Shown: piece by piece, positions 1-13,165 of the stretch
Position numbering within the stretch: position 1 is the first letter of the stretch
Layout: each line of letters begins with the position of its first letter
Notes under the pieces: generated by a model
Databases searched by the model: none
What the model saw: the letters and a program-made list of their open reading frames with translations, nothing else
Told to the model about the DNA's origin: nothing
NCBI GenBank assembly: GCA_018830295.1
Contig: JAHJSM010000001.1
Span: forward strand, 1,980 to 65,979
Direction of reading: 5' to 3'
Length of the DNA: 64,000 nucleotides
Origin: Patescibacteria group bacterium
Lineage (GTDB): Bacteria > Patescibacteriota > Minisyncoccia > Portnoybacterales > UBA2143
Position numbers and translations under genes: made by a program

Positions 1-275
1 TCTAATTTTTTAACATTAATTATTTTCAAATCGTAAGCCACCCTTAAATGAATTCTTAATCGTTCAATTCTCGTGTTTATTTCCGGAAAATAAATCCCCT
101 TATCCTCTTTGGAATTGGTTATAATAATCCAATCCAAAAGTTCGCTGGCTGTTTCTTTTAATTTTTGGCCTAAGGAATATTTATATTCTCTGGGAAAATT
201 ATGCGTCGCGCGATAAACTTCAAGGTTTAAATCATATCCCTTTTGAAAAATTGGCAAATGAATATAGCGCGACAT
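1..275 (-). CDS. Four-helix-bundle protein (family often encoded in 23S rRNA intervening sequences); 5' partial, runs off the window edge
   Basis: Reverse-complement translation from the ATG at 273-275 gives MSRYIHLPIFQKGYDLNLEVYRATHNFPREYKYSLGQKLKETASELLDWII..., matching the conserved N-terminal region of four-helix-bundle / rRNA-IVS proteins. Absent from the ORF track because it has no stop in the window. Confidence 0.55.
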   Translation of the reverse strand, partial: MSRYIHLPIFQKGYDLNLEVYRATHNFPREYKYSLGQKLKETASELLDWIIITNSKEDKGIYFPEINTRIERLRIHLRVAYDLKIINVKKL

Positions 276-285
276 ATCCCTCCCT

Positions 286-812
286 CCCCCACAAATCTAT
301 AAATCTACAACAAATCTACAAATTTCTGGGAGATAGAACTCTAAAAAATTTAACACCGTTTGATGTAAAATTAGCAAGTATTGCCAACTTCATATCTGTT
401 GCTTTTAAATATCCCTTGACTTGTTCTATATTTCTCTTTGAAAAGTAATTCCCTTTTTTGATTTCAAGTACTATTTTATCCTCAATAATAAAATCTAAAT
501 AATATCTGCCTATAACTTCATTTTTAACGGATATTTTATAAGGAGCTTGTCTTCTAAATTTTATCTTTTCCGCAATAAAATATTTTTCTATCGCTTTTTC
601 GTAATACTTTTCTTGATAGCCGTAACCTAATTCATTATAGACATCAAATAATACACCGACAATTTTATAGCTTAATCTTTTATAAATTACTTTGTTTGTG
701 TTTTGTCTTTCTTCTATCATTGTTCATATTATACATTTTTCCCATAAATCAACCAGCCCCCACAAATCTATAAATATTCAACATCCATCTTATTCGGTAT
801 TTGTAGATTTGT
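286..812. repeat. Inverted/direct repeat frame around the GxxExxY gene: 14-bp perfect inverted repeats (310-323 ACAAATCTACAAAT and 799-812 ATTTGTAGATTTGT) plus 19-bp direct repeats CCCCCACAAATCTATAAAT (286-304 and 757-775)
   Basis: Exact string matches read directly from the sequence. There is also a local tandem AAATCTA(C/T)A x3 at 292-320. Confidence 0.8.
316..720 (-). CDS. GxxExxY family protein (PD-(D/E)XK-like)
   Basis: 134-aa ORF carrying the motif ...NELGYGYQEKYYEKA... (G-x-x-E-x-x-Y). This family is commonly found beside four-helix-bundle proteins. Confidence 0.7.
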   Translation of the reverse strand: MIEERQNTNKVIYKRLSYKIVGVLFDVYNELGYGYQEKYYEKAIEKYFIAEKIKFRRQAPYKISVKNEVIGRYYLDFIIEDKIVLEIKKGNYFSKRNIEQVKGYLKATDMKLAILANFTSNGVKFFRVLSPRNL

Positions 813-894
813 GAGATGATTTGTTGATTTGCGGGAGATTAAGAAAATAATTAAATTAAGAGAATTATCAAATCATAAAATATTGCCAGGGGGG

Positions 895-2286
895 CTAACG
901 CACACAGCGCGAGTCATACTCATTAGTCTTAAGATTGGTGTCCGTGCTCCCGTGGCGCAAGTCCGTGTACCAAGCGCTGTGGGTACTGTAAGATTTAGTA
1001 GTAGCCGACCAAAAGTTGAAGTTAGCGTGAGGGAGATTCCCCCAGGAACCGTCAATATAGGCCTGCATTAACTCCTTTTGGTGCGGCAAACGCCAATTAC
1101 CGTCTCCTATGGCTTTGCAACCTGTAATATTCGGCGTGCTGGTCGCGGTGACGCATTGACAAGCGTCATCGCCATCGGCGGTACAAGTTCCCGGATTTGC
1201 CCAACTTCCTGGCGCCCAGCAATTATTCGCCCACCACCAATTATGATTGGTCCCGCTATCTAAATAATCAGACCAAATCTGACCCGTATTATTATCTTGA
1301 TAACAAACATCGCCCGTACATGCCGTAGAATCTCCTGTTTTGCAATAATTATTGGCCGCGGCGCATTGTGTCCAAGAAGCGGCAAAACTGTCAGTCGGTC
1401 TTGCGCCATTATCATTATAATCATCTACCCCGCCTAAGGCCTGCGTGTAAAAAGCGAAATCAGTCGCGGGACTAGTCGCCGAGCCGTTTTTTATATTCAC
1501 AACCGAAAACATACTTCTGTTATTCAAATATTCCAGCCGCTCTAAAATATTTCCATCTATATTGGCGGCTATTGTGGTTGAACTGTAGCCCGACTGAGCG
1601 AGCGCGTCTAAATAACCCGCCCGCGCGTCTGTCCAAGTGTTGGTTGTTAAAGCGGTTGAAGAAGGCGCTGTGTAATCATAATTGGTTTTAAACCAGCCAA
1701 AAAGCGTATCGGTGCTGGTGGCAACCGTGGAAGAGCCGAGATGATAAGCGATACTGCCGGCGAACGGAGTGGTTGAAGCGGTTGAACTTGAAATTAAAAA
1801 TCTCAAATCTGAATTAAGCAAATCTAAATAATTGGCTCTTGCGTCTGTCCAAGTATTGGTCGTTAAGGCGGTTGAAGAAGGAGCGGTGTAATTATAAGTT
1901 GTCTTGAACCAGCCAAAAAGCGTATCAGTGCTGGTGGCGGCGGTCATATCCATATTATCCACAATCAGTTTGCCAATGCTTCCGGCAGTAGTCAATTCCG
2001 AAGTCGCTTTGTCCCAGATATTGGCGGCCAAACTCGCTATCGCTTCGCTCATCGCCTCCAAACTATCCGTCGTTCGGTCAAAAGTGTCATTAATATCTTT
2101 CGCCGCCATTTCTAAAAGAGAATGCATTGTCCCCGCCGGACTCGCCGAGGGCTCTAAATCCCCTGCTCTAACAATCGTATAAACAGCCATTATGGAAATA
2201 ATAATCACAATCATTAAACTCCATAAACCTGGTTTATGGGCGAAGATAATCTTGCTCAAGCGCCCTTTTTTAAATTTTTTTGCCAT
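895..2286 (-). CDS. Membrane-anchored secreted protein with an internal ~70-aa tandem duplication and a Cys/Trp-rich C-terminal DUF1566-like (Lcl C-terminal-like) domain
   Basis: N-terminal KK-rich region followed by a TM helix (LWSLMIVIIISIMAVYTIV). A duplicated block (STDTLFGWFKT.Y.YTAPSSTALTTNTWTDARA.YLD) occurs twice. The C-terminal motif ...GNWRLPHQKELMQAY... fits DUF1566. Confidence 0.6.
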   Translation of the reverse strand: MAKKFKKGRLSKIIFAHKPGLWSLMIVIIISIMAVYTIVRAGDLEPSASPAGTMHSLLEMAAKDINDTFDRTTDSLEAMSEAIASLAANIWDKATSELTTAGSIGKLIVDNMDMTAATSTDTLFGWFKTTYNYTAPSSTALTTNTWTDARANYLDLLNSDLRFLISSSTASTTPFAGSIAYHLGSSTVATSTDTLFGWFKTNYDYTAPSSTALTTNTWTDARAGYLDALAQSGYSSTTIAANIDGNILERLEYLNNRSMFSVVNIKNGSATSPATDFAFYTQALGGVDDYNDNGARPTDSFAASWTQCAAANNYCKTGDSTACTGDVCYQDNNTGQIWSDYLDSGTNHNWWWANNCWAPGSWANPGTCTADGDDACQCVTATSTPNITGCKAIGDGNWRLPHQKELMQAYIDGSWGNLPHANFNFWSATTKSYSTHSAWYTDLRHGSTDTNLKTNEYDSRCVR

Positions 2287-11747: not shown

Positions 11748-12662
11748 TCACTCATTATTACTGATATACTTATACGCGCTTAACGCCGCTTTTGCCCCTT
11801 CGCCCGCCGCGATAATCATTTGTTTGTATAAGACCCCGCTCACATCTCCCGCGGCGAAAATATTAGGTCGCGAGGACGCGTTGCGTGAATTAATTTTTAT
11901 CTCGCCCCACTCATTTAATTCTACCACATTTTTAACTAAAGAGGAATTGGGGATAGAACCGATTGCGACAAAAATCCCTTCCACCGACATTTCTTTCATT
12001 TCTTCGGAAGCGCCGTTCTGATAAACCAAGCCGCTCACAAATTTATCCCCCTTTATTTCCTGAACCGTCGCGCCCGTCATAATCTCAATTTTGTCCGACT
12101 TTTCAAGCCGCTCCTGGAGAACCTCATCCGCCCTTAAAACCGAACGCGCCAAAAGATAGACCTTAGAAGCGTAAACAGCCGCCTCCAAAGCCGTATTCGC
12201 CGCCGAATTGCCCCCGCCAATCACAGCGACTTCTTTATCTTTAAACATGGGCGCGTCGCAGGTCGCGCAGAAAACAATTCCCTTCCCGATAAATTTTTCC
12301 TCATTTGGAAGACCCAATCTTTTTGGCGTTCTGCCCGTCGCAATAATAAGCGCCCTTCCCTCATAAGAACCGTCTTCCGTTTCCACCTCAACCGTCAATC
12401 CGTTATCCACAAGCAAGACATTTTTAACCCCCAAACCTTCTTTAATTTCTATTTCGTTTTTTTTCAACTGCCCAACCATCCTCTCAACCAATTCCGCGCC
12501 AGAGACCGGTTCAACCCCCGCGTAATTCTCAACCAAAGGCGCCAAGGCCGCCTGCCCGCCCCAACTCTTGGCAATCAAAAGCGTCTTCATTTTTTTCCGA
12601 GCCGCATAAATCCCCGCCGAAATAGCAGCCGGCCCCCCACCGATAATAATTAAATCATACAT
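11748..12662 (-). CDS. trxB: Thioredoxin-disulfide reductase
   Basis: GGGPAA FAD-binding site, CATCD redox motif and GGGNSA NADPH-binding site. Confidence 0.9.
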   Translation of the reverse strand: MYDLIIIGGGPAAISAGIYAARKKMKTLLIAKSWGGQAALAPLVENYAGVEPVSGAELVERMVGQLKKNEIEIKEGLGVKNVLLVDNGLTVEVETEDGSYEGRALIIATGRTPKRLGLPNEEKFIGKGIVFCATCDAPMFKDKEVAVIGGGNSAANTALEAAVYASKVYLLARSVLRADEVLQERLEKSDKIEIMTGATVQEIKGDKFVSGLVYQNGASEEMKEMSVEGIFVAIGSIPNSSLVKNVVELNEWGEIKINSRNASSRPNIFAAGDVSGVLYKQMIIAAGEGAKAALSAYKYISNNE

Positions 12663-12673
12663 AAGGTTATTTA

Positions 12674-13165
12674 CTATTTTAATTGGTTTTCTTTTGTTAA
12701 ATCAATCTTTAACTGATCAACCACCACAACTTTACTTTTTTCAAAAATATTCATCAAATTAGAATATTCTTTAAATAAATCCGGTGTATTAATGTTTTTA
12801 TAATCAAATTGAATTTGTAAATACTTGTCTTTTTGAATTTGTTCAATAAAATTATCAAAGTTGAAATCAACAACAGGATACAGGGTTTTATTAAAATCTA
12901 CAAATCCATACATTCTTATATTTAATTTGCCTTTTAATTTATCGAATAATTCTAAACTGAATGTTTTTGAATTTACAATAAAAACAAAATAAATTTCATT
13001 ATTATACAAACCAATTTCGCAAAAATCTGTTGTAATTGTTGGTAAATCTTCTTTAATCAGATTTCCATTATTATCATAATTATTTTTCGTATATTCTAAT
13101 TTAGAAACAAATTCCTTATTCTTGATCAGTATTTTGCGAAATTGGTTCAAGTCTTCAATGTTCAT
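12674..13165 (-). CDS. Hypothetical protein in a very AT-rich region
   Basis: 163-aa ORF rich in N, K, I and F. No family recognised. Its composition differs from the flanking core genes. Confidence 0.5.
   Translation of the reverse strand: MNIEDLNQFRKILIKNKEFVSKLEYTKNNYDNNGNLIKEDLPTITTDFCEIGLYNNEIYFVFIVNSKTFSLELFDKLKGKLNIRMYGFVDFNKTLYPVVDFNFDNFIEQIQKDKYLQIQFDYKNINTPDLFKEYSNLMNIFEKSKVVVVDQLKIDLTKENQLK

Follow-up and report, generated by a model that had tools for sequence, protein, structure and literature searches.

The window considered here is a 64-kb stretch of a Patescibacteria contig (JAHJSM010000001.1) with a G+C content of 39.6%. Its positions 1-2286 are one end of a diversity-generating retroelement (DGR) of Patescibacteria that is itself ordinary, and within it lies a gene of the GxxExxY family. 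The locus was followed in L001, a 20-kb stretch of the 744-kb contig (ENA ERZ27247117) that reaches 10 kb to either side of the GxxExxY gene in reverse orientation; an L001 position equals 10721 minus the window position, and L001 runs ~9.7 kb past the window start. On the coding strand L001 contains, in order, the DGR target gene (Lcl_C/DUF1566) with the variable repeat (VR) at its 3' end, the GxxExxY gene, avd, a GIY-YIG gene, 180 nt of non-coding DNA, the template repeat (TR) and a convergent reverse transcriptase (RT) gene. The target gene, the cassette, avd and their parts, given below in window coordinates, are all on the minus strand. Neither rRNA nor tRNA was found in the window, and an Rfam scan detected no rRNA in the window or in L001, as the original prediction had stated for the window. 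Extension of the contig upstream revealed the GIY-YIG gene, TR and RT in place of an rRNA gene, and an ordinary rRNA intervening sequence (IVS), which an upstream rRNA gene would have implied, is not at hand since the 20-kb stretch is free of rRNA.

The four-helix-bundle open reading frame (ORF) at the window start (1-275) comprises the first 91 codons of avd, the full gene encoding 118 aa and spanning L001 10446-10802. In a profile search its best families were bAvd (PF22296) and DivGenRetAVD (NF033474) and not the rRNA-IVS family; the fragment scored 41.8 bits against PF22296 (cutoff 40), and the full-length protein 72.8 bits over the full NF033474 profile (cutoff 80). The gene is in all probability the Avd accessory gene of the DGR. 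It had been grouped with the GxxExxY gene as a pair typical of rRNA IVSs. This pairing is not upheld, as 28 of the 29 related DGR loci with sequence extending upstream of avd have avd but no GxxExxY. Instead of an IVS gene pair, the corrected annotation gives a DGR in which a nuclease cassette hitch-hikes.

Related DGRs came from two sources, relatives of the RT (81-83% identity) and a metagenome scan with Avd, which yielded 30 loci; the RT relatives L007 and L088 end at the RT and give no view of the cassette site. In L004, L005 and L006, with RTs 81-83% identical, the target gene is followed directly by avd across spacers of 35-80 nt without GxxExxY. Neither small nuclease gene is present in L093 (Avd 97%, RT 92% identical, the RT being a 49-aa fragment on the contig) or L094 (Avd 97%, RT 97% identical). 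At the DNA level L001 and L093 are 98% identical over the avd stretch, and their alignment matches base for base through ...attattttcttaat and resumes at gagggatATG, where avd begins. These matching flanks are separated by 20 nt (tctcttaacaaattctaatt) in L093 and by 555 bp in L001. The 555-bp segment, absent from L093, is the GxxExxY cassette (283-837, +/- 3 nt; L001 9884-10438). No target-site duplication was found at the L001/L093 junctions. Judged from these alignments, the GxxExxY gene is evidently a separate cassette inserted beside avd, not a part of the DGR. A discrete cassette of ~500 bp with terminal inverted repeats outside rRNA had been proposed from the window, and the segment that replaces 20 nt in L093 bears this out. 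On its avd side the cassette is bordered by the avd ribosome-binding stretch GAGGGAT (276-282), which the alignment shows to be common to cassette-free L093, and on the other side by the spacer 3' of the target-gene stop, ccccctggcaatattttatgattt..ttaattattttcttaat (838-894), which is conserved in cassette-free relatives.

Among the 30 scanned related loci GxxExxY was present in one and GIY-YIG in six; outside the scan, L001 has both and L006 has GIY-YIG. The GxxExxY cassette in L109 (positions 1-700), 37% identical and unrelated, lies in the VR-avd spacer of another DGR and abuts the avd ATG. It has ACGCGGAT/ATGCGAAT-type arms together with a 52-nt tandem duplication of the 5' arm, and is an independent insertion at the equivalent site. 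DGR spacers of Patescibacteria are repeated landing sites for small nuclease cassettes.

A search of the window located ACAAATCTACAAAT at 310-323 with its exact reverse complement at 799-812, and CCCCCACAAATCTATAAAT directly repeated at 286-304 and 757-775, in agreement with the 14-bp inverted and 19-bp direct repeats originally described. When at most 2 mismatches are tolerated, the 14-mer matches the window at 7 places compared with 1.39 expected, a count reached in 0 of 100 shuffles, and five of the seven fall within 291-832; the 19-mer has 2 matches compared with 0.04 expected. A longer version of the direct repeat extends over 27 nt with 93% identity. Both repeats are far above shuffle expectation, by which coincidence, named at the outset as a way in which they could fail, is ruled out.

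Both repeats belong to inverted arms of ~40 nt, in which 32 of 39 aligned positions are Watson-Crick pairs and each of which consists of about four iterated heptamers of the ACAAAT type. Read on the coding strand, the 5' arm CTCCCGCAAATCAACAAATCATCTCACAAATCTACAAAT (799-837) is made up of iterated CAAAT(C)/ACAAAT units and includes the inverted-repeat copy 799-812. The 3' arm ATTTGTAGATTTGTTGTAGATTTATAGATTTGTGGGGGAGG (283-323) includes the inverted-repeat copy 310-323 and the direct-repeat copy 286-304, and overlaps the last codons and the stop of the GxxExxY ORF. The outer half of the 3' arm is present once more as a partial copy, TATTTATAGATTTGTGGGGG, at 757-776, which includes the direct-repeat copy 757-775. 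The order on the coding strand is 5' arm, 21-nt loop, partial 3'-arm copy, 36 nt, ORF and full 3' arm. The 14-mer is the innermost pair of heptamers, at the inner end of the arms, and the 19-mer corresponds to the outer half of that 3' arm, which occurs twice. The 19-bp direct repeat reflects partial duplication of the 3' arm within the cassette; it had been taken for a target-like duplication, which it is not, because both copies are inside the 555-bp insert and the junctions are without duplication. The copy at 757-776 pairs with the inner 5' arm (798-813) to form a hairpin with 16-nt arms, 94% complementary, and a 21-nt loop. A search for a sigma-70 promoter or terminator of the cassette gave nothing beyond shuffle expectation.

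The GxxExxY gene (316-720), predicted at this position from the start, encodes a protein of 134 aa that matches TIGR04256 with 97.8 bits (cutoff 35) and PF13366 (PDDEXK_3) with 96.7 bits (cutoff 22), both well above the cutoffs. Residues D76, E86 and K88, as well as G34, E37 and Y40, are invariant in 37 homologs. The AlphaFold (AF2) model has a pLDDT of 90, and its best matches among solved folds are Cas4 SSO0001 and lambda-exonuclease-like nucleases, with a TM-score of ~0.5; a sequence search returned no solved structure. PADLOC reported weak Cas4 matches only for the cassette protein, and family profiles and the fold search recognized no transposase, HUH or DNA-binding domain in its 134 aa. 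From sequence and model the protein is predicted to be a minimal PD-(D/E)XK nuclease. The GxxExxY family is large, and the literature search returned essentially nothing on GxxExxY, PDDEXK_3 or IVS proteins outside rRNA.

With each species represented by one genome, a scan gave 80 GxxExxY loci, which belong to Patescibacteria, Saccharibacteria, Bacteroidota, Acidobacteriota and others. Arms were detected by local alignment of the upstream flank to the reverse complement of the downstream flank, and scores of at least 30 were counted. This score was reached at 62 of 75 GxxExxY loci (median 40); of 387 other ORFs in these loci, 10 reached it (median 18). The typical arm is 33-45 nt long with 3-5 heptamer copies spaced 8, 11 and 8 nt apart, usually ends in CCC/GGG on the outside, and has the heptamer consensus YACNRAT. 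Arms abut the start and stop codons of the GxxExxY genes and leave no room for a Shine-Dalgarno sequence before the ATG. The heptamer shifts with the protein lineage, from TACAAAT in close relatives to TACGAAT, CACTAAT, CACAGAT, TACGGAT, GCAGAT and ACGGATT, and its variable fourth position switches between A, G and T in concert in all four units of both arms. Cassettes of the ACGGAT/ACAGAT type occur in Flavobacterium. In one metagenome-assembled genome (L013, L022, L043) the copies differ in their heptamers, which track protein identity. Among 20 arm pairs, changes on both sides were found at 18 of 32 stem pairs, and mismatches across the family show no wobble excess (72 G-U, 70 A-C).

Of the 67 neighboring genes on each side, 61 have the orientation of the cassette, compared with 300 of 399 co-oriented control pairs, and the median gaps to them, 47 and 51 nt, are about one arm length. 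The closest GxxExxY homologs (83% and 82% identical) have unrelated neighbors and the same ACAAAT arms. Within 5 kb of the 80 loci there was no RT and no Avd of the DGR kind; the lone match to the Avd query is an S23p-like four-helix-bundle gene in L053, 26% identical and 3.3 kb away. A general association of GxxExxY with DGRs is absent. Arrangements range from plain arm-gene-arm in L089 to L090, where a complete arm-loop-arm hairpin stands on either side of the gene, the window copy having a partial hairpin upstream. Gene-less hairpins of ~85 nt were found in intergenic junctions in L045 (1924-2001 and 3764-3850), L068, L016, L053 and L043, and L045 has three similar elements within 3.5 kb. 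No description of the family-wide arm architecture or of gene-less hairpins was found in the literature covered, which did not extend to subscription journals and database family notes. At ~4930-5000 of L010, a 41-nt perfect palindrome (GGTTACAAAACTATTTCG CTA CGAAATAGTTTTGTAACC) interrupts the 5' end of a GxxExxY gene and looks like a separate miniature insertion.

The likeness to rRNA IVSs that was originally suggested stands for the GxxExxY cassette, which has the anatomy of the Coxiella IVS, and falls for the four-helix-bundle gene, in all probability the Avd of the DGR. The 23S rRNA IVS of Coxiella burnetii is 428 nt long; RNase III cuts the stem that its inverted repeats form, and its ORF start is directly preceded by 3-4 tandem GACAGAT heptamers (PMC4990558). 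Like the 23S IVSs of Coxiella burnetii, Leptospira, Brucella and Xanthomonas, GxxExxY cassettes are short (470-555 bp, compared with 428 nt in Coxiella), contain a single small sense ORF without a good ribosome-binding site enclosed by stem-forming inverted repeats, have tandem heptamers before the start codon (GACAGAT x3-4 in Coxiella, YACNRAT x3-5 in the cassettes), and show a sporadic, selfish-looking distribution. Several GxxExxY cassettes use CACAGAT, and the Coxiella GACAGAT is said to fit YACNRAT. In contrast to these IVSs, the cassette of the window lies in the spacer of a protein-coding operon and not in helix 9, 25 or 45 of 23S rRNA, has no rRNA within ~9.7 kb, and encodes a predicted PD-(D/E)XK nuclease, whereas IVSs encode an S23p four-helix-bundle protein. 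An rRNA IVS proper was rejected, the flanks being protein-coding and rRNA being absent from the window and L001. S23p-like four-helix genes, which are not Avd, are also flanked by inverted tandem repeats of 7-8 nt, in L053 (1339-1695), L059 (487-768, minus strand), L119 (269-613) and L037 (2076-2345); the repeats are AGCAAAC, TTAGTAT, ATCAGCT x10 and TTAGTTGA. The S23p-like gene of L119 lies 1 kb upstream of a DGR avd.

We consider it likely that the segment is a selfish IVS-type cassette outside rRNA, inserted in the VR-avd spacer of a Patescibacteria DGR. It is assigned to the IVS type because it has the same anatomy as ORF-bearing IVSs of 23S rRNA, with a predicted nuclease as cargo. The 555-bp cassette entered the short spacer between VR and avd, bringing a promoter-less GxxExxY gene between two inverted heptamer arms of ~40 nt, the usual form of GxxExxY genes across phyla, and would be transcribed passively with the target-avd operon. 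The sequences show the insertion, the arms and their presence throughout the family, the intact catalytic residues and the lack of a general link to DGRs; the way in which the cassette moves is inferred.

Several points weigh against this reading. Gain and not loss of the cassette rests on parsimony across ~33 related loci, because the junctions lack a duplication and the 20 nt of L093 differ; these 20 nt contain one ACAAAT, which is possibly the remnant of a deletion. No second copy of the cassette, its arms or its genes was found elsewhere in the 64-kb window, which thus gives no sign of recent transposition in this genome. In one metagenome-assembled genome three copies are 72%, 65% and 52% identical to the query, and copies so old and divergent are more in keeping with an element that is slow or ancient than with an active transposon. 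The minimum free energy (MFE) fold of the window copy is a local hairpin with self-pairing of the 3' arm and not a long-range stem; the original prediction of a long RNA stem joining the flanks did not hold when the copy was folded. In the 20 arm pairs 95.7% of cells are paired, compared with 82.3% when shuffled and 34-50% when slid, a percentage that is inflated because the pairs were selected by complementarity. Finally, the nuclease function of the GxxExxY protein is a prediction.

As to the arms of the selfish cassette, two roles are considered that do not exclude each other. Tentatively, the arms could be cis sites that move or maintain the element at the DNA level, as a hairpin or cruciform or as arrays recognized by its own nuclease. 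Concerted iteration of the heptamers, the gene-less derivatives and the lack of a G-U excess favor this role or recognition by protein. Slightly more doubtful is that the arms, by analogy with Coxiella, might form an RNA stem cleavable by RNase III, for which the Coxiella precedent, the sense orientation and the missing ribosome-binding site speak.

Were the element purely one of RNA, the arms would serve only as a double-stranded stem in the operon transcript from which RNase III frees the ORF loop, the nuclease would play no part in movement, and spread would occur via ordinary recombination or horizontal transfer. RNase III excision at a heptamer-bearing stem is known for the Coxiella IVS (PMC4990558), sense co-orientation with neighbors is more frequent than in controls (91% vs 75%), the arms abut the ATG and leave no Shine-Dalgarno space, and arm changes on both sides keep pairing. 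Arm mismatches, however, have no wobble bias, a stem alone needs no fourfold concerted iteration of heptamers, the MFE fold of the window copy prefers local hairpins, and no Rfam family matches. A purely RNA-level element is on balance unlikely.

A classical transposon, moving by cut-and-paste or copy-and-paste and having terminal inverted repeats and a target-site duplication, was the first reading offered for the repeats and would account for the terminal inverted arms, the presence/absence polymorphism and the gene-less derivatives, which resemble miniature inverted-repeat transposable elements. The junctions have no duplication, however, the 19-bp repeat being internal; the protein is a minimal nuclease core of 134 aa with no recognizable transposase or DNA-binding domain, and no near-identical copies were seen. 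This explanation is very unlikely. Systems of REP/REPIN and RAYT share with the cassettes a small gene between inverted copies of a short repeat, and gene-less hairpin doublets in intergenic spacers. They differ in that the cassette protein is PD-(D/E)XK and not HUH/Y1, and in that copy number appears low, with none elsewhere in the 64 kb; membership was rejected, there being no HUH family match. With free-standing homing-endonuclease genes and small selfish GIY-YIG/PD-(D/E)XK genes the cassettes share an intergenic nuclease gene and presence/absence polymorphism between close relatives, but homing genes are normally without long inverted heptamer arrays, and the cassettes, given their diverse neighbors, show no evident target-site specificity.

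The GxxExxY gene could also be a functional accessory of the DGR, for example by nicking near VR, with the inverted repeat as a hairpin or cruciform that marks the target. Its position directly downstream of VR and upstream of avd, and the second, unrelated GxxExxY in the same spacer of L109, would suit this, and hairpins downstream of VR assist homing in the Bordetella phage DGR. Yet the gene is missing from L093, L004-L006 and 28 of 29 loci, which keep adenine-specific VR/TR differences, and none of 80 GxxExxY loci has an RT nearby. The cassette-bearing copy is the least adenine-specific (14 of 21 mismatches), which argues against a helper role. Such a function is scarcely credible. That the repeats are a low-complexity coincidence in AT-rich intergenic DNA, as the 39.6% G+C of the window and the short, AT-rich units might suggest, is refuted by the shuffles, by the arm counts (62/75 vs 10/387) and by the absence of the whole segment from L093.

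Beyond the selfish cassette of the window, GxxExxY nucleases, heptamer arms and gene-less hairpins might together constitute one phylum-spanning mobile class, the same as the ORF-bearing IVSs with their tandem heptamers and S23p as sister cargo, in which the nuclease recognizes the arrays and moves or maintains the element; this wider proposal is tentative. If true, it would supply bacterial IVSs, which have lacked an explanation since 1990, with both a mechanism and an origin, and would make small operon spacers, besides rRNA helices, a habitat of IVSs. For a family with almost no literature, the arms, orientation, hairpins and IVS anatomy give a testable hypothesis for the role of GxxExxY proteins, and likewise one for how IVS-type elements arise and move.

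The DGR target gene (895-2286) encodes 463 aa with a C-terminal Lcl_C (DUF1566) domain (PF07603, 41.4 bits, residues 329-463). VR (888-1030) spans the last ~45 codons of this gene and matches TR (L001 11300-11442) over 143 nt with 85% identity and 21 mismatches, 14 of them at TR adenines. A total of 45 of the 143 bases of TR are A, and AAC codons are abundant. In relatives 19 of 19, 19 of 20 and 9 of 11 VR/TR mismatches are at adenines. The RVT_1 gene lies 28 nt from TR on the opposite strand and encodes the motifs GLPIGNLTSQ and YVDD; (I/L)GxxxSQ is a mark of DGR reverse transcriptases. All homologs of the RT are from Patescibacteria. Other samples yielded two short contigs, 100% identical, whose breaks fall exactly at VR and TR. 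The locus is like other DGRs of Patescibacteria (CPR) in its DUF1566/Lcl_C target with C-terminal VR, its probable Avd, its TR rich in AAC codons and its (I/L)GxxxSQ RT, and differs in having GxxExxY between VR and avd, GIY-YIG in the 3' end of avd, and 7 non-adenine VR/TR mismatches compared with 0-2 in relatives.

The RT gene (L001 11470-12636, minus strand of L001) is convergent with TR (plus strand) and avd, and not co-oriented downstream of them, a layout found in every related locus that retains avd and RT (L004-L006 and most of L093-L122). A 30-nt inverted repeat, 87% complementary (L001 11117-11146 and 11457-11486), brackets TR and the 180-nt leader upstream of it, which is G+C-rich and conserved. 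This repeat is kept with small changes in L004, L006 and L093, in the form AATGA(A)GCCAGAAT... / ...GGCT(T)CATT, and may be the ends of the DGR template RNA. No Rfam family was found over the cassette or the TR region, even at E <= 1.

A second cassette, just past the window start at L001 10793-11114, consists of 322 bp with a GIY-YIG gene (84 aa), bounded on both sides by a terminal inverted repeat of 13 bp that is perfect, ACCCCGTTAGATA / TATCTAACGGGGT. Its insertion in the last codons of avd, where L093 reads ..gataattt|gaaaaggg.., is precise and without duplication, and changes the Avd C-terminus from ..DNLKREIQ to ..ENLPR, the flanking bases completing the GIY-YIG stop. The CCCCGTTAGA inverted repeat also flanks GIY-YIG genes in L006, L035, L095 and L099.

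Differences between VR and TR at positions other than adenine number 7 in L001, 0 in L004, 1 in L006 and 2 in L093. Beside the conserved 3' end, the VR of L001 keeps the older ACTAATG, as in the TRs of L004 and L006, where its own TR reads ACGACGG, and has thus not been rewritten since TR changed; the VR of L093 already matches the newer TR at this stretch. These sequences suggest, speculatively and from essentially one case, that the DGR with the ACAAAT-type cassette has not homed recently. L006 carries GIY-YIG and still looks active; should one of the inserts be responsible, the candidate would be the GxxExxY cassette.

The target gene contains an internal direct repeat of 116 nt, 85% identical (window 1607-1722 and 1823-1938; L001 8999-9114 and 8783-8898), which encodes a duplicated ..TDTLFGWFKT.Y.YTAPSSTALTTNTWTDARA.YLD.. 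upstream of Lcl_C. Dinucleotide microsatellites occur at both borders of the DGR: a (TG)n run upstream of the target gene (window ~2385-2425), of which one frame reads MCVCVCVCVCVC, and a (CT)n run of ~30 nt directly upstream of the RT start (L001 ~12645-12677). Next to the RT, L001 12784-14136 encodes a protein of 450 aa with SLFN/AlbA_2, HATPase_c_4 and HTH domains and moderate PADLOC matches to Argonaute-associated and CARF/WYL-type models, which may be a defense or regulatory gene.

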